In this document: positions 3,894-55,481 of the stretch, piece by piece | How positions within the stretch are numbered: position 1 is the stretch's first letter | How the letters are laid out: each line of letters opens with the position of its first letter | Source: an uncultured bacterium | GTDB taxonomy: Bacteria > Patescibacteriota > Patescibacteriia > Magasanikbacterales > UBA922 | Assembly (NCBI GenBank): GCA_937861125.1 | Contig: CALMAY010000037.1 | Span: 196,941 to 260,940, forward strand | Direction of reading: 5' to 3' | DNA: 64,000 bases | Made by a program: the position numbers and the translations under genes | Notes under the pieces: model-generated | Database searches by the model: none | Told to the model about the DNA's origin: nothing | Seen by the model: only the letters and a program-made list of their open reading frames with translations

Positions 3894-4026
3894 GTCATTC
3901 CGACCGAAACGACCGGAGGGAGTGAAGTGGAGGAATCGCTTTCTTATATCTGATTTAGCTGGAACGAAGTGAAAAGAAGTATTGCGACTTACGAAAGGGG
4001 TCCCTCGACTTCGCTCGGGATGATAA
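3894..4026. mobile_element. MITE-like repeat, copy 1 (about 133 bp, imperfect terminal inverted repeats GTCATTCCGA.../...TCGGGATGA)
   Basis: Near-identical over most of its length to 7605..7733. The termini are reverse complements of each other. Confidence 0.75.
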
Positions 4027-4876: not shown

Positions 4877-5581
4877 TTATGAGTGAATGTGTTGAGTAAG
4901 AAATGATTGAGCTATTTGTTTCATTATATCAAGTTCTACGTCTGCATTCAATATGTGTACAGTCGTTCCTCGGGAGGTAAAGTGTGATTGATAGTCTGGG
5001 GAAAGAAATTGATTTCGTGCAAGTGTGAGAAATTCTTGGTGTTCAAACTTGGCATTATCGTCTTTTTCAAATCTACTAGCTAGACGTTTGAGTGCGGTCT
5101 CTGGCGGAATGTCTGAAATAACAAGGTAATCAGGTGCATGTGTGAGTGTCAGTGCATTACCTCTGAGTCCTGCTATATAGCTCATCGCTAGTCCAGTTTC
5201 ACCGAGGCTTTGGTAACAGAGCGAGGTGGAGATGCCACGATCCTGGATAATGTGCACACCTTTTACACGAAGCGGAATCAGTAATCGTGTGTAGAGAATT
5301 TCACGATCGAGTGAAAATGCGTCAGCGATAGTTTCTGTCTGATATGAAGCATCTTTTGAAATCAACTCAGATCGAATCGCTGCGCCAACCCACGCATGTG
5401 TTGGTTCTGCAGAAAATACCACCTGCACATCACCAATTTCTGCTAGAGTTGGGAGTCTTTTTTCTGTTTTACAAAATGCAGTGATATCAAAACAGGTATG
5501 AGTTTTTTGGAGCGTTTCTTTCCAGGTAGACATGATAGTACTTTTGCCAGATCCATCGATACCGTCGATCATGATAAACAT
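4877..5581 (-). CDS. tmk: Thymidylate (dTMP) kinase-family protein
   Basis: P-loop MFIMIDGIDGSGKST and QDRGISTSLCYQ (DRY..S..AYQ-like). Start trimmed to the ATG at 5581. Confidence 0.7.
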   Translation of the reverse strand: MFIMIDGIDGSGKSTIMSTWKETLQKTHTCFDITAFCKTEKRLPTLAEIGDVQVVFSAEPTHAWVGAAIRSELISKDASYQTETIADAFSLDREILYTRLLIPLRVKGVHIIQDRGISTSLCYQSLGETGLAMSYIAGLRGNALTLTHAPDYLVISDIPPETALKRLASRFEKDDNAKFEHQEFLTLARNQFLSPDYQSHFTSRGTTVHILNADVELDIMKQIAQSFLTQHIHS

Positions 5582-5612
5582 ATGTTGAAAATTCAAAGAT
5601 ACAAGAAACAAG

Positions 5613-5664
5613 TTACTAACTAACTAACTAACTAACTAACTTGTGAACTTACTAACTGTCTAAC
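5613..5664. repeat. Tetranucleotide (TAAC)n / 8-bp periodic array
   Basis: ttac taac taac taac taac taac taac ttgtgaac ttactaac tgtctaac, lying between the folA stop and the tmk start. Confidence 0.85.
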
Positions 5665-6130
5665 TTCTTTCATACCTCACAAACGCAAATCCATCATGAT
5701 CATCTCGTGACACTTCCTTCCACACACTTAAATCAATCTTTGGAAAAAACGCGTCACCATCTACTGTTTGGTTGATATGTGTAATTTCAAGTGCATCCGC
5801 TTGATCAATCGTCTGTTTGTACAATTCCGCGCCGCCGATAATGAAAACATCTTCATTGTGTAATTGTGCAAACGCATCTTCTGTTGAAGAAAAAGTTAGG
5901 ACATTATCTGGTACGACGTAGTCAGTCTGTCGTGTGATCACAACATTTTGTCGATTGGGGAGTGGGCGAAACTTTTCTGGTAGTGACTCCCATGTTTTGC
6001 GACCCATCACTACTGTTTTGTGTGTGGTGAGTTCTTTGAAATGCTTGAGATCCTCTGGGATATGCCAAGGCAGTGTACCGTTGTGACCGATACAGTTATT
6101 TTGGGCGATGCCTGCGATGAGGGTAATCAT
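5660..6130 (-). CDS. folA: Dihydrofolate reductase
   Basis: MITLIAGIAQNNCIGHNGTLPWHIPEDLKHFKELTTHKTVVMGRKTWESLP is the canonical DHFR N-terminus. Confidence 0.9.
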   Translation of the reverse strand: MITLIAGIAQNNCIGHNGTLPWHIPEDLKHFKELTTHKTVVMGRKTWESLPEKFRPLPNRQNVVITRQTDYVVPDNVLTFSSTEDAFAQLHNEDVFIIGGAELYKQTIDQADALEITHINQTVDGDAFFPKIDLSVWKEVSRDDHDGFAFVRYERS

Positions 6131-6708
6131 ATGTCTTTATTTACTTCTTTTATTGTTTTTTCTATTTTAATTGGTCCAATGCCTCTTTCCCACATGGTAG
6201 GAATTTTATTGATAGAGTAGTATTCACTAGCAACCGCTGCGTATATTATACAGTCTGTATTTTTTTGTGACTCAAAACTATAAAGAATAAGTGTTTTTGC
6301 AATATTGATTAGTATATTTTCAATATGGTTGTACGTATTTTCTTTTAGACCATAATCTATGTTTAAAACAAAATCACCATCTAATCTATTTAGATTTAAT
6401 GTAATTTGTTCTGTTGATTTTCCAGCATTTTCTGTGTCTAAGAAAAAAGGTTCATATAAAAAATCTTTATACAAGGAATTTATTTTTTCATAATCTTTTT
6501 TTTCCATTAGTACACCCAAAAGCTTTGTAAAAATACTAATTTCAGATAATAATTTTTTTATTTTTTCTTTGTCTTTTATAGAAATAATAATACTGTCTAA
6601 AAAATAAATAAAAATTATGGGTAATTTATCATATTCCTTTGAGGGAAAAATAAAATGAATACCTAGTCCAGAATCAAGAATACCTATTTTTAAACTAGTG
6701 TTGTTCAT
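6127..6708 (-). CDS. Hypothetical protein, very AT-rich ORFan inserted between thyA and folA
   Basis: Intact ORF. Start trimmed to MNNTSLKIG (ATG at 6708). Its TGA stop overlaps the folA ATG (ATGA at 6127-6130). G+C is 9/60 on line 6541 and 13/60 on line 6361. Confidence 0.6.
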   Translation of the reverse strand: MNNTSLKIGILDSGLGIHFIFPSKEYDKLPIIFIYFLDSIIISIKDKEKIKKLLSEISIFTKLLGVLMEKKDYEKINSLYKDFLYEPFFLDTENAGKSTEQITLNLNRLDGDFVLNIDYGLKENTYNHIENILINIAKTLILYSFESQKNTDCIIYAAVASEYYSINKIPTMWERGIGPIKIEKTIKEVNKDI

Positions 6709-6718
6709 ATAAATAGTT

Positions 6719-7591
6719 TTACACCGCAATTGGAAATTCAATCTTCGGGTAACTTTCATATCCGACTACCTTACTATCCTCAGCCTTCCAGTCAAAGATG
6801 GAGGTAAATGGTTCTGTGATTATCTGTGGAAGTGGGTATTGGTTTGGATCACGTGAGAGGAACTCCTGTACTCCGTCCATATGATTGCTATACACATGAA
6901 CATCAGCGAGAAAGCCAACCAGTTTTCCTTCTTTGAGTCCCGTTTCTTTGGCGAGGAGGTGGAGGAGGAGACCATAGCTAGCAATGTTGAACGGCAGTCC
7001 AAGCATAGTGTCGACAGAGCGCTGGTTCCATAGGAGGTTGAGATGTCCATCGATCACAGTGACTTGAAATCCGTAGTGACATGGAGGAAGTGCCATCTCA
7101 GAGAGTTGGTTTGGGTTCCATGCCATCACAATCATGCGACGATCAAATGGGTTTGATTTTATTTTTTCAACCATTGCTTTGAACTGGTCAATTCCTGCGT
7201 TAGTATAGTCACTATCGTATGATGCGTATGGTGCATTGAAATGGCGCCATTGAAATCCGTATACTGGACCAAGGTCGCGTTCTGCAAGCATCTTTGCTTT
7301 GGTTTCTTCGTCATGACCGTATGGTACTTTTTTTGGAGAGCACCATTCATCCCAGATGTGATTGTTTCTCTCTTTGAGCCATTCTTTGTCTGTGTTGCCA
7401 CTGATAAACCACTGGAGTTCTGTCGCAATCAGTTTGAATGGTGTTTTTTTGGTGGTGAGGAGCGGAAAACCTGTCTGCATGTCATGTTCAAACATGGCTC
7501 CTGCAATCGCAATAGTCCCTGTGCCAGTTCGGTCTTGTTTTTCTTTTCCTTCTGTAATAATTTTTTGGACGATGTTGTGATAGGATTGCAT
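6719..7591 (-). CDS. thyA: Thymidylate synthase (ThyA type)
   Basis: MQSYHNIVQKIITEGKEKQDRTGTGTIAIAG aligns from residue 1 with E. coli ThyA ([26 protein letters not shown]). An alternative upstream ATG at 7609 lies inside the repeat terminus. Confidence 0.9.
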   Translation of the reverse strand: MQSYHNIVQKIITEGKEKQDRTGTGTIAIAGAMFEHDMQTGFPLLTTKKTPFKLIATELQWFISGNTDKEWLKERNNHIWDEWCSPKKVPYGHDEETKAKMLAERDLGPVYGFQWRHFNAPYASYDSDYTNAGIDQFKAMVEKIKSNPFDRRMIVMAWNPNQLSEMALPPCHYGFQVTVIDGHLNLLWNQRSVDTMLGLPFNIASYGLLLHLLAKETGLKEGKLVGFLADVHVYSNHMDGVQEFLSRDPNQYPLPQIITEPFTSIFDWKAEDSKVVGYESYPKIEFPIAV

Positions 7592-7604
7592 ATGTTTTAT
7601 AATT

Positions 7605-7733
7605 GTCATTCCGATTGGAACGACTGAAAGGAGTGAAATGGAGGAATCGCTTTCTTATAAATAATTTAGCTAGAACGAAGTGAATAGTAATGAGAAACTT
7701 ATGAAAGGGATCCCTCGGCTACGCTCGGGATGA
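7605..7733. mobile_element. MITE-like repeat, copy 2
   Basis: gtcattccgattggaacgactgaaaggagtgaaatggaggaatcgctttcttata...cgctcgggatgac matches copy 1 at 3894..4026. Confidence 0.75.
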
Positions 7734-7743
7734 CAGGTGTGCG

Positions 7744-8172
7744 CTAAAATATTCCAGTACTCCCAAACCTTCCTTCGCCTCGTTCACTTTCTGAAAGTTC
7801 GTCTACTTCCACTAAATTGGCGTGAATAATAGGGAGAATAACCACCTGCCCAATTTTCTGCCCTTTTTGAATTGTCTGTGATGTGTCTCCCATGTTGAAC
7901 AATCCAACATTGTATTCACCACGGTAGCCTGCGTCAAAAACGCCACCAAAATTTTTGAGTCCTAGTTTGGTAGAAACACTGCTTTTGTCCATGACAAACG
8001 CACCATATCCTTCTGGAAATTCCAGGGCAAAGCCGGTCATAAATACTTTGCGTTCACCTGGTGCAATCACAGTATCTTCTTCGCAGGAATACATATCCAT
8101 ACCTACATCGCCTGGGAGTGCGTAAGAGGGGAGTTTTGCATCTGGTCGGAGGCGTTTAACCTTGATATCCAT
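7744..8172 (-). CDS. dut: dUTP diphosphatase
   Basis: MDIKVKRLRPDAKLPSYALPGDVGMDMYS...RGEGRFGSTG. Start trimmed to M28 of the ORF. Confidence 0.85.
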   Translation of the reverse strand: MDIKVKRLRPDAKLPSYALPGDVGMDMYSCEEDTVIAPGERKVFMTGFALEFPEGYGAFVMDKSSVSTKLGLKNFGGVFDAGYRGEYNVGLFNMGDTSQTIQKGQKIGQVVILPIIHANLVEVDELSESERGEGRFGSTGIF

Positions 8173-8716
8173 AGTGTTTGAGGAGTGTTTCAATCTGTGT
8201 GTAGAGTGTGTCAAAATTTCCATCATTATGAATGGTATTTTCTGCTTGTGCACCTAACTCTTTGATGAGTTTGTCCGCTTCACTTTGTTCATCAGTACAA
8301 AATTGTTCAAATGATTTGTCTGCGTCACCTGGATTTTCATTGCGAAGTTTCATGCGTTCATAGCGAATCTGTGGATCAGCGGTGATATATATTAAATGAA
8401 ACCCAGGAATTTCTTTGAGGTAACTAATGTCAGTGGGACGTCGAATCCCATCAACGACGACGAGTTGTCCTTCATCTTCGAGTACATCTTTGGTAATCAC
8501 TTTGCTCATGATATCTTGACCAAATCGTTCGCGCAGAAGGGTAGAGAGGTCTTGGAGATTTTCTCGTGTTTTCTCGATATAGATACGATCCAAAATATCA
8601 CGCAACATGGTAGAGAAGCGGTACGTATTGCAGTTGTATTTCAGTGCGAGATAGCTCGCGAGAGTTCCTTTGCCCGCAGCGAGGTCACCGACAAAGCCGA
8701 CAATTATTTTTTGCAT
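8156..8716 (-). CDS. P-loop nucleotide/(d)NMP kinase-like protein
   Basis: Walker A GDLAAGKGT and VVDGIRRP, as in the adenylate/dNMP-kinase fold. Its position inside the dTTP module supports a nucleotide kinase role. Confidence 0.55.
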   Translation of the reverse strand: MQKIIVGFVGDLAAGKGTLASYLALKYNCNTYRFSTMLRDILDRIYIEKTRENLQDLSTLLRERFGQDIMSKVITKDVLEDEGQLVVVDGIRRPTDISYLKEIPGFHLIYITADPQIRYERMKLRNENPGDADKSFEQFCTDEQSEADKLIKELGAQAENTIHNDGNFDTLYTQIETLLKHYGYQG

Positions 8717-8721
8717 ATGTT

Positions 8722-9189
8722 TTATTCCCAATCACAGATATATTGTCGATAAGTAATTCCAGCCGCATCAAGCATGTTGCGTGCAGCAATGCATGCTGGG
8801 GTGTTGTGATATAAATCTTTTTCGTAAATCACTTCTGTAATTCCTTTTTGAATAAGCGCTTTAGTGCACTCATTACAAGGAAATAGTGTTGAATATATTT
8901 TGCATTCATGGGTATCAGCATTGGCATTATAGATTGCATTTTCTTCAGCATGGCAGATGTAGGCGTACTTCGTTTCGTGAAGTTCACCTTCACGTTCCCA
9001 TGGAAATTTGTCTGCATCGATGCCTCGTGGAAAACCATTGTAGCCAATACCAACAACCACATTATCTCGTGTGGCGATAACAGCACCAACTTGGGTAGAA
9101 GGATCTTTGGAACGCTCTGCCATTGTGCGAGCAATACGCATAAAACATTCGTCCCAGGAGAGTGCATTTGTGCGTGGTTCTGTAGCCAT
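8722..9189 (-). CDS. comEB: dCMP deaminase (ComEB/CDA-fold zinc deaminase)
   Basis: HAEENAI ... PCNECTKALIQ zinc-binding motifs. Start trimmed to MATEPRTN (ATG at 9189). Confidence 0.85.
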   Translation of the reverse strand: MATEPRTNALSWDECFMRIARTMAERSKDPSTQVGAVIATRDNVVVGIGYNGFPRGIDADKFPWEREGELHETKYAYICHAEENAIYNANADTHECKIYSTLFPCNECTKALIQKGITEVIYEKDLYHNTPACIAARNMLDAAGITYRQYICDWE

Positions 9190-17502: not shown

Positions 17503-18408
17503 TTAGATACTTGGTGCGATGAAACTGTTTGGGTCAAAAATGTTTACGAGTGGAAAAAATTCAATGGTTTCAACCTGGCCCAAAGAAGAGAGAAAACGAA
17601 TATCAAACGTTCTCGCTTCATCTGAGAGGAAACGATCGATTGTGATAGGTCTGATACCTGTCAATGTATTGCTGGTATAGATAGCGATATATCCATTGAC
17701 TTGGTAGAAGCTATAGGCGCTTTTATTGTGGAGTGTAAACAAAAGGCGATCGGTCGGTCCAGAGAGTCCACCTGCGGGGATATGGGAGACATCTGTTGTT
17801 TCGATATGAAGGCGTTCTTTGGTGTATGATGGGACGTCAAAGATGGTGTGCGGAGAGATGCGCTGCCATTTCGTAGAGAGGATGCGAAATGATGGTTTAT
17901 TTGGATATATATTTGTACTCAATCCAAGTTCGGCTGCAAGCTGTTTTTGTCCTGGGAGAATTGCAATAGTTTTGGTGGGGGTTGTCGTGTTGCTGAGTGC
18001 GTATGTAAATGTGACAAAGGCAATATGGCGCGTGTTTGGGTTGGTGATTGTTGATACTAGGTCATATGTGTCGTCTGCACTGACAACGACTGTGGGAGCT
18101 GATATGTTGAGTGGTTTGGTACTATAGAATGTTTGTGTGTTTGTTTGTGTGAGTGATGCTTGTTCTGCAAGTAGTTTTTTGTCCTGCCAATATCCAAGAA
18201 TAGCATATTCTGCCCAACGATAGGTACTATATCCAACACTAATAATGCACCAAAGTACGAGGGAAAATGTACCAATACTGACAAATGTCTCCTTGTGTTT
18301 AAGAAGCCAAACAGAGATGGCAAGTTGCTTGTTTGACAAATCACCGTCTGTTGGTTGATACAGCGTTGATGGATCGGTTGGTTTTTTGCCAAAGAAATTC
18401 ATAGTCAA
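17503..18408 (-). CDS. Hypothetical membrane-anchored protein
   Basis: One TM segment near the N-terminus. Abuts ftsW with no gap. Confidence 0.5.
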   Translation of the reverse strand: MTMNFFGKKPTDPSTLYQPTDGDLSNKQLAISVWLLKHKETFVSIGTFSLVLWCIISVGYSTYRWAEYAILGYWQDKKLLAEQASLTQTNTQTFYSTKPLNISAPTVVVSADDTYDLVSTITNPNTRHIAFVTFTYALSNTTTPTKTIAILPGQKQLAAELGLSTNIYPNKPSFRILSTKWQRISPHTIFDVPSYTKERLHIETTDVSHIPAGGLSGPTDRLLFTLHNKSAYSFYQVNGYIAIYTSNTLTGIRPITIDRFLSDEARTFDIRFLSSLGQVETIEFFPLVNIFDPNSFIAPSI

Positions 18409-18441
18409 TGATGATAGTATACAGCAATCTATGAGTTTTGA

Positions 18442-20618: not shown

Positions 20619-20644
20619 CCCTCCGTTTTTGCGGAGGGATTTTT
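20619..20644. terminator. Bidirectional terminator (ccctccg-tttttg-cggaggg)
   Basis: 7-bp GC stem flanked by A4 and T4. Serves gyrB (+) and the convergent ORFan (-). Confidence 0.75.
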
Positions 20645-21527
20645 ATTGTATAAGGAGTTTGTCCAAGCTAGTATGTACTATCTCTTGACAACGTAAAATA
20701 AATTTTAACGTATCATTATCTTCATCTTTTCTAGGATGAGAAGAGTTATAATTTTTTATTTTTCCAGAATGGAGATGTCCAGATCTCACTGCATATGGAT
20801 TTTCACCAAAATTGTTTTCTATTGAGTTGTATATGAGTTCAGAGTATGTATTGTTACAAAAAATTTCTTTAAATCTTTTTTCTTTTTTTCTTTCTTTGAG
20901 GGAAAATCTTGTGTCAATATCTGAGTAGATCCCCATTTTATTTGGTCTCGTATATATAGCCTCAACTGCAGAGATGGCGGAAGTTATGGAAGAGCTATCC
21001 TCCCCTTTATAAAATCTTATTTTTGATTCATGTATTAGATATGTAGCGGACGTAAAGTATCCAGTATCTTCCATTGTCAGTTTGTCAATTTTATCAAATA
21101 TATTTTTAATAAACTCATTGCTTATTGTAGTGGCATTTCTGATTTCAATTCCCCTATAATTCTGAGGATAAGTAAGTAGTACATTGGCTGACAATACACC
21201 TGGATATCTGTAGTATCCGTGCCATGTTGTATCAAAAATATATTCGTTAATGAGTAAGGAAAGAATAGTGGCAATTTCTAAACTTCTCTCGAATACTATG
21301 AACACATCATTTGGTTCATACTGTACTCCCATCCAAAAATAGGTATATTGGCCGAATTGGCCAGATTTTCCAGGTGCATGGGGGATCGAGTAGTCAAGAA
21401 TTTCGTTAGAATTTACAATGAAGTATTCCTTATCTCTGTATTTAAAGTTTGTTTCTACGAGGGCATCAAGCGGACATGTTATGCCTTTTTTAAGAAATAG
21501 CACGGGATTGTATGTGTTTGGAATCAT
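20643..21527 (-). CDS. Hypothetical AT-rich ORFan with a C-terminal HEPN-like Rx4H motif
   Basis: Intact 294-aa ORF with 19/60 G+C on line 20881. YAVRSGHLHSG at nt 20769-20786 fits the HEPN R-x4-H pattern. Confidence 0.55.
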   Translation of the reverse strand: MIPNTYNPVLFLKKGITCPLDALVETNFKYRDKEYFIVNSNEILDYSIPHAPGKSGQFGQYTYFWMGVQYEPNDVFIVFERSLEIATILSLLINEYIFDTTWHGYYRYPGVLSANVLLTYPQNYRGIEIRNATTISNEFIKNIFDKIDKLTMEDTGYFTSATYLIHESKIRFYKGEDSSSITSAISAVEAIYTRPNKMGIYSDIDTRFSLKERKKEKRFKEIFCNNTYSELIYNSIENNFGENPYAVRSGHLHSGKIKNYNSSHPRKDEDNDTLKFILRCQEIVHTSLDKLLIQ

Positions 21528-38656: not shown

Positions 38657-38696
38657 TTTCTTATTTTTTATTTTTTGTGTTATACTAGTTGTCACT

Positions 38697-39821
38697 ATGA
38701 CACCCAGACATATCGAGACACGTGTACCCACACAGCCAGTACGCGTTTACAAAATACTTGCAATTACATTTCTCACTATTACTGTGATTCTTCTTGCGGT
38801 GATTGGGTTTATGTCTTCCAAGCGTGCGACGATTACCATCACGACCAAAGAAACTCCGGTGGAGACCAATGTTCGTGTCGCACTCTCTGACGTAAATGGA
38901 AGTATTTCAACGGTCACTACTACTCAAACACAAACATTTTTTGTTACTGGGGGTGCTGAAGTCCCTGGTAAGGCTACAGGAATGATGCGAATTTACAATA
39001 CCTCTGCTACTGCGCAGCCATTGGTAGCCACGACACGTTTTCTTTCAACTGGTAATGTTCTCTTTCGTCTCAAAGCAGGAGTAGTGGTTCCTGCAAATGG
39101 ATTTATTGATGCAGAAGTAGCTGCTGACAAAGAAGGAAAAGAAGGAAACATTGGTCCAGATTCTTTTACTATTCCAGGACTTGATGCTGTGAGACAAAAA
39201 GAGGTGTATGGGAAAACAGAAAGTGTAATGCAGGGTGGTATTCGTACGCAAGGGGTGGTGTCACAAAAAGATCTTGATGTTGCTCAGGCAACACTTGAAC
39301 AAAAGATATTGGATACCGCAGCAACATTGTTTACAGATTTGGTAAGTACGAGTACAAACGCGTTATATTCAGTACATAACACACAGTTTAGTACCGGGGT
39401 AAAAGTAGGAGATACGGTTAGTGAGTTTGGTGGCTCTCTTACGGCTGATGTTACTCGTGTGTACTATGATGCGTCTATGATACAAAGTAAAGCCACGGAA
39501 TCGCTCTATGAACGTGTGGTAGATGATGCAGAACATATTGATTTGGGGAGTGCGGAGCCTGTTGTTACAATAGGGTCACTCACAACTGAGCCAAAGACAA
39601 CTGAACTTTCTGTAGTACTCTCAGGTGTAGCGACACTCAATCCAGATAGTCCGAAACTTGAAAAATCAGTATTTTTTGGTAAAACAAAAGATGAAATTCG
39701 TCGCTATGTCCTCACGATGGATCATGTCCATGGAGTAGATATACATTTTTCTCCAGCGTGGATGCAGACAGTACCACATGTGGCAGATCATGTAGATGTG
39801 GTGATTAAGGAAGTGAAATAA
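38697..39821 (+). CDS. Hypothetical N-terminally membrane-anchored protein
   Basis: One TM segment (ILAITFLTITVILLAVIGF) followed by a beta-rich region. Confidence 0.5.
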   Translation: MTPRHIETRVPTQPVRVYKILAITFLTITVILLAVIGFMSSKRATITITTKETPVETNVRVALSDVNGSISTVTTTQTQTFFVTGGAEVPGKATGMMRIYNTSATAQPLVATTRFLSTGNVLFRLKAGVVVPANGFIDAEVAADKEGKEGNIGPDSFTIPGLDAVRQKEVYGKTESVMQGGIRTQGVVSQKDLDVAQATLEQKILDTAATLFTDLVSTSTNALYSVHNTQFSTGVKVGDTVSEFGGSLTADVTRVYYDASMIQSKATESLYERVVDDAEHIDLGSAEPVVTIGSLTTEPKTTELSVVLSGVATLNPDSPKLEKSVFFGKTKDEIRRYVLTMDHVHGVDIHFSPAWMQTVPHVADHVDVVIKEVK

Positions 39822-46039: not shown

Positions 46040-46068
46040 TTGTATCTATTGCTGCTTTTTCGTATACT
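46040..46068 (+). promoter_or_regulatory. miaA promoter (TTGTAT-17-TATACT), with the -10 ending 8 nt before the ATG
   Basis: ttgtat ctattgctgctttttcg tatact atggtcgt ATG. Confidence 0.45.
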
Positions 46069-46076
46069 ATGGTCGT

Positions 46077-47006
46077 ATGATTCAAAATGTACCAAAATTG
46101 ATTGTCCTGTGTGGTCCGACTGGGAGTGGAAAAACTGATCTTTCTCTTCGTTTGGCGAAACGATTTGGTGGTGCTATTGTTTCTGCTGATTCACGACAGC
46201 TCTACAAAGAGATGACGATAGGGACGGCCAAGCCTATCGGGAGGTGGCAGTGGCGAGGATTTCGTCGTGTGTACATAGTGGAAGGAATCGAGCATTACAA
46301 TCTTGATTGGTTGAGTCCAAAAAAGGTGTTTAGTGCTGCTGAGTTCAAGATGCGAGCACGCAAGTGGATCGGCCGTGTTTTGAAACAGAAACAAGTACCG
46401 TTTGTGGTCGGCGGAACTGGATTATATATTGATGCGTTGGTAGATAATTTGTCTTTCCCAAAAGTGGTAGCGAATCAGAAATTACGAGATGAGTTTTCTC
46501 AGAAATCTTTGGAAGAGCTTTTGACTCAATTGAATGAAGTTGACCCAGAAGCCGGAGCAATGATTGATCGAAACAATCCTCGTCGTGTGATTCGTGCGCT
46601 TGAAGTGTCATTACTTTCTGGTACACCATTTTCTGCTCAGCGAATAAAAGGGGAAAAACTGTATGACGTGCTGTACTTAGGCGTTTCTGTGCCAAAAGAA
46701 GAGTTAGATCGTCGGTTAGATAGACGGATTGATATGATGATGGAGGGTTGCTTGGTAGAGGAGGTCAGAAAATTGGCGAAAAAATATCCGTTCAGTTTGC
46801 CAAGTATGAGTGGGATTGGATATAGAGAGTTTGAGGGGTTTGTAAAGGGAGAGGAAACATTGGAACAAGCGATCGTAAAACTCAAAACCGATACACGGCA
46901 GTATGCCAAGAGACAGATGACATGGTTCAAACGACGAAATGATATTGTGTGGTGTAAGGTGTATGAGGAGATGGAGGAGCGTGTCGCGGAGTTTTTGAAA
47001 AGGTGA
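46077..47006 (+). CDS. miaA: tRNA dimethylallyltransferase
   Basis: LIVLCGPTGSGKTDLSLRLAKRFGGAIVSADSRQLYKEMTIGTAKP. Confidence 0.9.
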   Translation: MIQNVPKLIVLCGPTGSGKTDLSLRLAKRFGGAIVSADSRQLYKEMTIGTAKPIGRWQWRGFRRVYIVEGIEHYNLDWLSPKKVFSAAEFKMRARKWIGRVLKQKQVPFVVGGTGLYIDALVDNLSFPKVVANQKLRDEFSQKSLEELLTQLNEVDPEAGAMIDRNNPRRVIRALEVSLLSGTPFSAQRIKGEKLYDVLYLGVSVPKEELDRRLDRRIDMMMEGCLVEEVRKLAKKYPFSLPSMSGIGYREFEGFVKGEETLEQAIVKLKTDTRQYAKRQMTWFKRRNDIVWCKVYEEMEERVAEFLKR

Positions 47007-53315: not shown

Positions 53316-54548
53316 ATGGCGATTCGCTCTTTGTCTTCACTTCATATATCACCAGGTGACGTGGTGCTGGTTCGGGTTGATTATAATGTGGCGATAAAAA
53401 ACAAAAAAGTAGTAGAGGATGAAAAAATTCGAGCTTCAATCCCAACCATTCATGCATTACAACAAAAGGGAGCAAAAGTATTGCTTGTGTCACATTTGGG
53501 CAGACCAGAGAGCAAGATCGATGTACAGTATTCTCTTGAACCAGTTCGAAAAGTACTTGAAAAAATATTGAGTTATAAAGTTATAAAGGTAGAAAGCTAT
53601 AAAGTTGTATCTTCGAGTAAAGAAGTTATTTTTGATATTCCCTCTATTCGTGTACAGATAGAAAAGATGAACGCGGGCGATGTAGCTTTGTTTGAAAATA
53701 TTCGGTTTGCCAAAGGGGAGGAGAGAAATGATCGTGCGTTTGCAAAAACACTTGCATCGTTTGCTAATGCGTTTGTACTCGATGGGTTTGCAGTGTCGCA
53801 CCGTGATAGTGCGTCAGTGTCTGGTGTGGCGCAGTATCTACCAGCGTATGCTGGGGTGTTGCTGGAGCGTGAGGTCAAAAGTCTTGGACAAGTTATGGAA
53901 AAACCCAAAAAACCATTTTGCTTGGTACTCGGTGGTGTCAAAATGGAAACCAAGATTCCAGTACTAAAAAAACTGTTACCAAAAACACAGTCAGTGTTGC
54001 TCGGTGGAGGTGTCGCCAATACGTACTTTGCTGCACGAGGATATGGAGTAGGAAAATCAGTGATTGATAGTGCATATACAAAGGAGATTGTGCGATATGC
54101 AAAACAAAAGAAAGTGGTTTTGCCAGTTGATGTGGTGGTGGGCACGCCTGACGGGAAACAATACCGCGTGGTGTCAATTGAAAAAAAGCCGCATCAGATC
54201 TGCAAACGAGGGGAGATGATTTTGGATCTCGGACCTGTAACACTTTTGCACTATGCTACGTATATACAGGCAGCAAAGACGATTGTATGGAATGGCGGTA
54301 TGGGGTATATGGAGGTCAAACCGTATGATGTGGGCACACTCACTGTCGCACGACTCGTCGCAGGGCGATCACGTGGTCAGGCATATGGTGTAGTAGGTGG
54401 TGGTGAGACGATTACCGCTCTTAGTCAGACCAAGATGTCACAGTATGTCGACGTTGTTTCTACTGGCGGAGGTGCAATGCTTGAATTTTTGTCAGGGAAA
54501 CAACTGCCTGGTGTAAAAGTGGTGACAAAAAAATGGTATCATCGATAA
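53316..54548 (+). CDS. pgk: Phosphoglycerate kinase
   Basis: VLVRVDYNV, LVSHLGRP, GGGVANTYF and VVGGGETI...STGGGAMLEFL. Confidence 0.9.
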   Translation: MAIRSLSSLHISPGDVVLVRVDYNVAIKNKKVVEDEKIRASIPTIHALQQKGAKVLLVSHLGRPESKIDVQYSLEPVRKVLEKILSYKVIKVESYKVVSSSKEVIFDIPSIRVQIEKMNAGDVALFENIRFAKGEERNDRAFAKTLASFANAFVLDGFAVSHRDSASVSGVAQYLPAYAGVLLEREVKSLGQVMEKPKKPFCLVLGGVKMETKIPVLKKLLPKTQSVLLGGGVANTYFAARGYGVGKSVIDSAYTKEIVRYAKQKKVVLPVDVVVGTPDGKQYRVVSIEKKPHQICKRGEMILDLGPVTLLHYATYIQAAKTIVWNGGMGYMEVKPYDVGTLTVARLVAGRSRGQAYGVVGGGETITALSQTKMSQYVDVVSTGGGAMLEFLSGKQLPGVKVVTKKWYHR

Positions 54549-54689
54549 AAATATGGTATACTTCCAATGAAATAAAATTATACAAAAATTAAGCATAAAT
54601 TATTTTTAGATATTTGTTTCATTTTTGTATAATTTCTGTTTCGCCTATCTTTATATTTTTCTATTCATTTTTTATTTTTGTTTTGTCTT

Positions 54690-55481
54690 ATGGCAACCAA
54701 TACGCAGCAACCACAACCATTTTTTGGTGAGTTCGGCCGTAAATTTATGGCCACATTAGTGAGTATTTTGTTGGTGTATGTTATCGTACTCGTCGGTACC
54801 ATGATCCGCAATAACATGCAAAAGTATAATACGATCGGTCAGGTAGACAGTATGCCTACTACTATTACCGTAGTTGGTGAAGGCAAGGTAACAGTCAAAC
54901 CAGATGTTGGTACTATCAACCTCGGTTTTTATACACAGGCTGATGATCTCAAAGCAGGTATTGCAAAAAATAATGAGATTATCAATAAGATGGTATCAGG
55001 TCTCAAGGCACTGGGTGTCGCAGAGGGTGATATCAAAACAGGTGGTCCTCAGACCAATCCACGTATGACATGGAATCCAGATGGAAGTAGTACACAAAAT
55101 GGATATGATATCAATCAAAATGTGACAGTAAAGGTACGTGATTTAACAAAATCACAAGACATTATCGGACTCGCTGGTGAGTCAGGGGCAAACACTGTCT
55201 CTCCACTTACCTTTGATGTAGACGAACCAAAAAATTATGAAGCACAGGCTCGACAAGAAGCAATCAATGAAGCATATGAAAAAGCACGTGTGCTGACACA
55301 ACAGCTCGGTATTTCAATTGTTCGTATGTCAAGTTACTATGAGACTAATAATGGTGGGTATCCAATGTATGATTATGGATATAACGCTGGGATGCCAATG
55401 GCAAAAACAATGGAGTCCACTGTAGAGCCAGGCAGTCAAGATGTAAACGTAGTAGTAAATATTGCTTTCGAAGTTCGCTAA
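54690..55481 (+). CDS. SIMPL/DUF541-domain protein, membrane-anchored
   Basis: TM segment, then TITVVGEGKVTVKPDVGTINLGF...QARQEAINEAYEKARVLTQQLG, typical of SIMPL (from memory). Confidence 0.6.
   Translation: MATNTQQPQPFFGEFGRKFMATLVSILLVYVIVLVGTMIRNNMQKYNTIGQVDSMPTTITVVGEGKVTVKPDVGTINLGFYTQADDLKAGIAKNNEIINKMVSGLKALGVAEGDIKTGGPQTNPRMTWNPDGSSTQNGYDINQNVTVKVRDLTKSQDIIGLAGESGANTVSPLTFDVDEPKNYEAQARQEAINEAYEKARVLTQQLGISIVRMSSYYETNNGGYPMYDYGYNAGMPMAKTMESTVEPGSQDVNVVVNIAFEVR

Follow-up and report, generated by a model that had tools for sequence, protein, structure and literature searches.

Lineage-restricted, AT-rich genes of bacterial genomes, referred to as ORFans, are taxonomically restricted, horizontally acquired genes (e.g., Daubin and Ochman 2004). 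Here, we describe a gene of this kind, ORF X, a 193-aa open reading frame (ORF) located between thyA (thymidylate synthase) and folA (dihydrofolate reductase, DHFR) in a 64,000-nt stretch of contig CALMAY010000037.1 (hereafter "the window"), from an uncultured bacterium of the Patescibacteriota. Like other lineage-restricted ORFans, ORF X is short, far more AT-rich than its host, found in a single lineage, and absent from sister species. Unlike typical ORFans, it does not reside in an island or prophage but is a single bare ORF placed with nucleotide precision in a 4-nt stop/start overlap within an essential operon, and its own 3' end restores that overlap. Overall, as an AT-rich ORFan, ORF X is an ordinary kind of element, but its setting is unusually tidy.

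In terms of behavior, ORF X comes closest to the free-standing homing endonucleases, for example mobE of phage T4, which lies between nrdA and nrdB, is driven by the upstream promoter, and is coupled to the upstream stop through an overlapping UAAUGA (PMC2988022). Like mobE of T-even phages, ORF X is a compact single gene located between conserved nucleotide-metabolism genes, starts near the upstream stop, occurs sporadically among relatives, and its expression would depend on the promoter of the upstream gene. Unlike this class of elements, ORF X carries no HNH, GIY-YIG, or LAGLIDADG domain, belongs to no family at all, and shows none of the testable hallmarks of the class; its host is also a bacterial chromosome rather than a phage. 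The interpretation we favor, with slightly better than even confidence, is that ORF X is a foreign passenger or selfish accessory gene, which was inserted as a bare 592-bp segment in the thyA/folA overlap and is expressed through read-through and reinitiation.

A 592-bp insertion at the thyA/folA overlap

The boundaries of the insertion were established by comparing the operon to five relatives with DHFR 83–87% identical, obtained from a large protein collection (a metagenome scan based on DHFR was dominated by one conserved peptide pattern and yielded few further close relatives). Against three of these (L082, L083, and L084), blastn alignments of the operon break at 6723/6131, with a single T alignable on either side. 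The ancestral junction reads ...GCGGT/ATGATTAC..., and the insert separates these two parts. On the minus strand, it consists of a G, which changes the ThyA Val codon from GTA to GTG, a TAA (6721–6719) forming the new thyA stop, the spacer AACTATTTAT, and the sequence ATG...GACAT of ORF X, whose start codon lies at 6708–6706. The insert extends to the second base of the final ORF X codon, and this codon (ATA) and the following stop (TGA, 6129–6127) are completed by the ancestral ATGA, which still includes the folA start codon (6130–6128). Both the ThyA C-terminus (...FPIAV) and the DHFR N-terminus (MITLIAG) are unaltered by the insertion, ThyA still ending in ...IAV because the insert supplies G plus TAA. 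At the ends of the insert, inverted or direct repeats did not rise above AT-rich noise. The insert also has no Rfam match and no terminator, and promoter-like sites were no commoner than expected by chance.

Gene order is conserved in the five relatives as far as their contigs reach, the longest spanning znuABC, L1, the operon, UPF0259, and gatB. In four of the five (L082, L083, L084, and L167), thyA and folA overlap directly by ATGA without any insert, and the junction reads ...CCAATTGCGGTATGATTAC..., the insert-free thyA-folA junction sequence being GCGGTATGATTAC. Direct ATGA overlaps were also found in two more distant relatives (L003 and L005, DHFR 61–63%), and in five others (L168, L002, L006, L009, and L070), thyA is separated from folA by spacers ranging from a few nucleotides up to about 12 nt. 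Since L083 lacks the insert and is as near to the window as any relative (nucleotide identity of 0.899 in thyA), absence of the insert represents the ancestral state. The initial annotation of this locus, made from the sequence alone, had proposed this comparison and had described ORF X as a recently acquired or fast-evolving gene, inserted in a conserved operon junction but kept intact and coupled. The insert-free junctions of the four relatives bear out the insertion itself and, together with the foreign G+C content at third codon positions (GC3), the acquisition; the alternative of a fast-evolving resident gene is less likely, given that the ancestral junction had no insert.

The exact ThyA, ORF X, and DHFR proteins were each found on eight contigs, whose contexts collapse to one. 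All available assemblies of this population thus carry the insert, which is fixed in the population as sampled. An assembly or binning artefact yielding a chimeric contig could be invoked to explain the sharp compositional break at both ends of the insert. We give this practically no credence, since the same arrangement is found on eight contigs originating from ENA, NCBI, and Logan assemblies and extending up to 329 kb, and since the junctions are clean to the base with both flanking genes intact.

Coding potential and composition of ORF X

Re-deriving the ORF coordinates from the sequence confirmed the initial description of a 193-aa ORF starting 10 nt after the thyA stop with its TGA overlapping the folA ATG, although an alternative reading of 210 aa would start from an ATG at 6759, inside thyA. 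Several lines of evidence indicate that this is a genuine protein-coding gene. Across the 592-nt segment, no stop codon is found in the ORF X frame, compared to 7–22 in the other five frames, and the open run of 196 codons far exceeds those of 3000 composition-matched shuffles (mean of 55, maximum of 141). Codon-position bias is present over the full length of the gene: G+C values at the three codon positions are 0.325, 0.237, and 0.165 (GC1, GC2, and GC3, respectively), and in each third of ORF X the frequency of G is 0.16–0.30 at position 1 vs. 0.05–0.06 at position 3. No transmembrane segment was detected (19-residue Kyte-Doolittle maximum of 1.47), in agreement with the initial annotation.

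The composition of ORF X deviates strongly from that of host genes, which points to a foreign, AT-rich origin. Its G+C content amounts to 0.244 (down to 0.21 over 300 nt), compared to 0.41–0.44 for its neighbors and to a window mean of 0.427 (standard deviation of 0.043), i.e., about 5 standard deviations lower. The GC3 of 0.165 is similarly deviant from the 0.31–0.43 of host genes, codon composition having been one of the checks initially suggested. The G+C counts of 9/60 and 13/60 first given for two rows of the sequence were reproduced on recount (60-base rows from 6540 and 6480, respectively), while the 45–55% attributed to the flanking genes proved too high, the measured values being 41–44%. 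ORF X is the lowest-G+C place in the window and its sole region below 0.29. The only other stretches with a 300-nt G+C down to 0.29 are far milder (20,626–20,975 and 54,476–54,825); a 294-aa ORF on the minus strand has one of them in its 3' part, while the second lies around an intergenic region and a gene start.

Unrelated cargo at the same junction

The thyA-folA junction hosts other genes in related genomes. In the fifth close relative (L166, DHFR 84%), the junction includes a 115-aa 23S_rRNA_IVP/bAvd-like gene (PF05635; 2582–3001 of that locus). This IVP cassette is found at the identical nucleotide position as ORF X (after GCSGT) within the same genus-level clade, and its insert likewise begins with GTAAA. 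Unlike the ORF X insert, which is almost entirely ORF, the L166 cassette has 31-nt inverted repeats (84% complementary) at its ends and does not overlap folA. Judging from the identity matrix, the L166 insertion is independent of the ORF X event. The cassette itself is palindromic and intervening sequence (IVS)-like, but located outside of rRNA. A similar IVP gene was also identified in the thyA-folA gap of a Planctomycetales metagenome-assembled genome (MAG; L052, 4965–5363).

Another type of cargo was found in the more distantly related Patescibacteria MAG JAHIUG010000038 (L004, 5601–6004), where a HicB-like/UPF0150 gene and a HicA gene (PF07927, E = 2e-13) lie between thyA and folA; the same HicAB sequence was recovered in Ga0180009_10002452 (L086). 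Like ORF X, this HicAB pair occupies the thyA-folA slot, supplies a new TAA for thyA at its left end, and ends with its last ORF on an ATGA over the folA start, 4-nt overlaps linking both HicB to HicA and HicA to folA. Unlike ORF X, which is single, partnerless, and without family, HicAB is a recognizable two-gene system with only a mild AT shift (0.36 vs. 0.39–0.41). Across a survey of 102 loci with thyA upstream of folA, the gap was 30 nt or less in 74 and contained more than 150 nt of unrelated cargo in 18, with varied gene content including GNAT, SET-domain, another IVP protein, and a membrane protein.

The insertion point is the only one at which an insert alters neither the C-terminus of ThyA nor the N-terminus of DHFR, so that selection alone suffices to explain the exact position, and an identical insertion point needs no site-specific mechanism. 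The free C-terminal carboxylate of thymidylate synthase participates in active-site closure, a role that would account for the immediate stop found in each cargo.

Other junctions around the operon have also gained small genes or short sequences. These include an SH3-domain gene that separates the kinase gene from dut in L167 (780–1679), a NUDIX gene between L1 and dcd in L083 (3201–3668), and two small opposite-strand ORFs in the L1-dcd gap of L082 (2647–3561). This suggests that small-gene turnover at junctions of the operon region is high in this clade. In the window, two ~130-nt copies of an element resembling a miniature inverted-repeat transposable element (MITE), ~85% identical, were found at 7605–7734 and at about 3894–4024 (plus strand). 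They occupy the dut-thyA and gatB-UPF0259 gaps, respectively, and L082–L084 lack similar sequence at both positions. These MITE-like copies have terminal inverted repeats (GTCATTCCGA...TCGGGATGAC), and the predicted RNA folding of the element is well below that of shuffles (z = −4.5). Finally, the folA-tmk gap (5593–5660) contains a ~64-nt lineage-specific insertion around a (TTAG)n/(AACT)n microsatellite, with ~6 units on the minus strand, the same gap being only 15–24 nt in relatives.

Searches for homologs of ORF X

ORF X has no detectable homolog. Pfam searches at E ≤ 10 with the full-length protein and with each half gave no match, nor did NCBIfam, and nothing significant was found in PHROGs (best E = 0.12). 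Defense models from PADLOC-DB v2 returned 0 families at E ≤ 10. At a larger scale, a word-indexed search of 5.8 billion clustered proteins recovered only ORF X itself, and an exhaustive phmmer search over 1.84 billion representatives yielded no homolog beyond self. Similarly, no match was found among IMG/VR viral contigs, or among phages and plasmids by tblastn and blastn, and phmmer searches of the PDB returned noise only. A single-sequence AlphaFold2 model had a predicted local distance difference test (pLDDT) score of 34.8, and a Foldseek search of the PDB with this low-confidence model gave no match below E = 1, neither result being usable. We also found nothing relevant in the literature on thyA-folA coupling or on inserts at this junction. 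ORF X hence combines the two attributes used to recognize horizontally acquired ORFans, as it has no outside homolog and is absent from sister sites while deviating in composition.

The similarity in behavior to mobE raises the possibility that ORF X is a free-standing homing endonuclease from a new nuclease family, which would cut insert-free alleles and be copied in by double-strand-break repair. ORF X is indeed AT-rich, compact, promoterless, located between nucleotide-metabolism genes, sporadic, and coupled to the upstream stop, and its insertion is exact to the nucleotide. We nevertheless consider this very unlikely. LAGLIDADG, GIY-YIG, HNH, and other nuclease models from Pfam did not match even at E ≤ 10, and no endonuclease was found among PDB matches at E ≤ 10. 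Families of this type are large, yet ORF X has no relative in the 1.84 billion representatives. The flanks are clade-typical, without a foreign co-conversion tract, and the exact position is equally accounted for by selection on the ThyA and DHFR termini. A LAGLIDADG reading of the N-terminal GILDSGLG was specifically rejected, as the second acidic residue of LAGLIDADG (catalytic acid) is missing from this motif and no model supports it.

Another candidate origin was a degenerate pseudoenzyme derived from glutamate racemase (MurI). The ORF X pattern KIGILDSGLG...IYFLDS...KDKEKIKK resembles MurI KIGVFDSGVGG...IYYGDT...KDKDTIIK, and the best PDB phmmer match of residues 1–91 is the Campylobacter jejuni MurI 3uhf. 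This match has an E-value of 0.43, however, and hhalign returned a probability of 4.3% over 13 columns, against a low-diversity profile including only Bacillus and Enterobacteriaceae. The Asp_Glu_race (PF01177) and NCBIfam models were silent, the catalytic Cys motifs ACNTA and GCTHYP are absent, with the single ORF X Cys found outside of such contexts, and ORF X is about 70–90 residues shorter. Based on these scores and on the lack of both a family profile match and catalytic motifs, MurI descent was rejected as barely credible.

Other identities were examined and discarded. A P-loop NTPase or nucleotide kinase, like the products of the neighboring tmk and AAA_17 kinase genes, was considered from a partial Walker A motif (NAGKST, residues 94–99), in which D replaces the first G and for which there is no Pfam P-loop match. 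An origin from a neighboring gene was dismissed, as tblastn against the window found nothing below E = 1 and hhalign against the DHFR profile gave a probability of 0.6%. A toxin-antitoxin module is inconsistent with a single 193-aa ORF filling the insert and with the absence of any Pfam or PADLOC domain. Finally, an integron gene cassette does not fit an ORF ending on the folA ATG, which leaves no room for attC, and the inverted repeats observed are AT-rich noise.

Origin and maintenance of ORF X

Based on these observations, we propose that a bare 592-bp segment would have entered one Magasanikbacteria-like (Patescibacteria) lineage, exactly at the 4-nt thyA/folA stop-start overlap. Transcription of ORF X would rely solely on read-through from the operon promoter. 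Ribosomes ending at the thyA TAA would re-initiate 10 nt downstream on ORF X, and would then be passed on to folA via the re-created ATGA, making the insertion nearly neutral for the operon, which would allow the gene to persist. Once established, the newcomer would be sheltered: a frameshift or nonsense mutation in the AT-rich ORF X frame would halt ribosomes hundreds of nucleotides before folA, as stops are encountered only a few codons into a shifted frame, and imprecise excision of the segment would harm an essential gene, thyA or folA. Such sheltering of ORF X by translational coupling is plausible.

Three points weigh against this interpretation. First, folA starts 8–30 nt past the upstream stop in L166, L168, and L002, so that a strict ATGA overlap is not obligatory, which weakens the proposal that the frame is kept open by coupling. 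Second, a single ORF X allele is known, and decay may not yet have had time to set in. Third, the assignment as a passenger is argued from the neighbors and from the absence of homology rather than from a positive result.

In another scenario, ORF X yields no useful protein and is dead on arrival or constrained by position only. It would be intact either because the insertion is recent or because a premature stop would leave ribosomes stranded at a distance from the folA start, selection then acting on the frame rather than on the protein. This would be consistent with the lack of homologs in either protein collection (5.8e9 clustered proteins and 1.84e9 representatives), with the single allele, and with a composition that has not shifted toward that of the host (GC3 of 0.165). 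In addition, the host lacks Shine-Dalgarno sequences, so that internal cistrons plausibly rely on nearby termination, and in every relative examined the upstream ORF ends 0–30 nt before folA. Against this scenario, a codon-position bias of the kind seen in long-evolved coding sequences is uniform across the 193 codons, which indicates a coding past but is silent on present function. We regard this scenario as unlikely, though a serious contender.

A further possibility is that ORF X is a partner of the pathway encoded by the operon, either as a regulator, inhibitor, or chaperone of ThyA/DHFR, or as a defense or immunity factor linked to the deoxynucleotide (dNTP) pool, placed at this position for stoichiometric co-expression. 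The gene is located between two enzymes of the deoxythymidine monophosphate (dTMP) cycle and coupled to both, and it is present on all eight contigs with this allele. On the other hand, every congener has the same operon without ORF X, indicating that the pathway does not need it; PADLOC returned no match, the lack of homologs means that there is no co-occurrence signal, and unrelated selfish cargo occupies the same slot in relatives. A pathway role is therefore decidedly unlikely. Because the other junction tenants are selfish and no congener needs ORF X, a passenger or selfish gene is rated above a pathway partner, and ORF X would most probably be accessory, as a passenger or selfish gene, rather than a component of the dTMP cycle. 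The roles initially put forward can be sorted accordingly: a selfish insert gains indirect support from the HicAB and IVP cassettes found at the same junction, while a ThyA/DHFR regulator and an anti-phage factor gain none, with no PADLOC matches and no conserved homologs, and are unlikely. It is finally conceivable, if distinctly improbable, that ORF X is the founder of a new active family, either as a new kind of junction-targeting selfish element with homing-like activity and an unrecognized nuclease fold, or as a protein binding or modulating ThyA or DHFR, which would tie dTMP supply to phage or host conflict in an episymbiotic bacterium.

Host operon and genome context

The insertion lies in a minus-strand operon for dTTP synthesis (Table 1), in which no terminator-like site was found on the minus strand from thyA to tmk. 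Mechanical ORF calls are longer than the called genes for tmk (4877–5611, 244 aa from a TTG vs. 231 aa), dut (7744–8253, 169 aa from a GTG vs. 142 aa), and thyA (6719–7609, 296 vs. 290 aa), and the shorter starts are backed by the alignment of relatives (tmk ATG at 5572, dut at 8172, and thyA at 7591).

Table 1 Features of the thyA-folA junction and surrounding operon in the window.
Feature	Position	Strand	Evidence and characteristics
Lineage-specific insertion	6131–6722	−	592 bp; blastn breakpoints and direct junction reading; one ambiguous boundary T
ORF X	6127–6708	−	193 aa, 22.3 kDa, pI 5.5, soluble; no known family matched
Spacer AACTATTTAT	6709–6718	−	10 nt, AT-rich, separates the new thyA stop from the start codon of ORF X; no Shine-Dalgarno
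ATGA stop/start overlap	6127–6130	−	Ancestrally thyA TGA/folA ATG, now ORF X TGA/folA ATG
thyA (thymidylate synthase)	6719–7591	−	Pfam PF00303, E = 4e-97; called gene of 290 aa
folA (dihydrofolate reductase)	5660–6130	−	Pfam PF00186, E = 9e-55; start overlaps the ORF X stop
dTTP-synthesis operon	4877–9189	−	Gene calls and Pfam; order dcd-kinase-dut-thyA-X-folA-tmk
dCMP deaminase	8722–9189	−	Pfam and called genes
AAA_17/18 kinase	8156–8716	−	Pfam and called genes
dUTPase (dut)	7744–8172	−	Pfam and called genes
Thymidylate kinase (tmk)	4877–5572	−	Pfam and called genes

The contig is chromosomal, as indicated by the presence of rpoB/C, ribosomal proteins, ftsW, and gatB, and the nearest named genomes are Patescibacteria/Magasanikbacteria-type MAGs, with DHFR 57–63% identical. 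The species itself is absent from the GTDB representatives scanned, among which the best DHFR match is 61–63% identical. A Shine-Dalgarno-like core is absent upstream of 47 of 50 long host ORFs. Several genes in the window have a TATACT −10-like box located 3–14 nt before their start codon (11 sites vs. 5.9 expected; e.g., 38,681–38,699, 46,063–46,079, and 18,400–18,421), which hints at leaderless or very short-leader mRNAs in this host.

Implications

The ORF X locus provides a nucleotide-resolved case of a foreign orphan gene settled in a tightly overlapped essential operon of a streamlined genome without Shine-Dalgarno sequences. In such a setting, a newcomer must bring a stop for the upstream enzyme and end on the downstream start, the former because the ThyA C-terminus is left unchanged. 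The presence of three unrelated cargos (ORF X, HicAB, and IVP) in a single slot of related Patescibacteria suggests that gene junctions are the few permissible landing pads in these compact genomes, and that newcomers may be protected against decay by translational coupling. The case would carry greater weight if the ORF X protein turned out to be expressed and active, be it as a new nuclease or as a ThyA/DHFR modulator.

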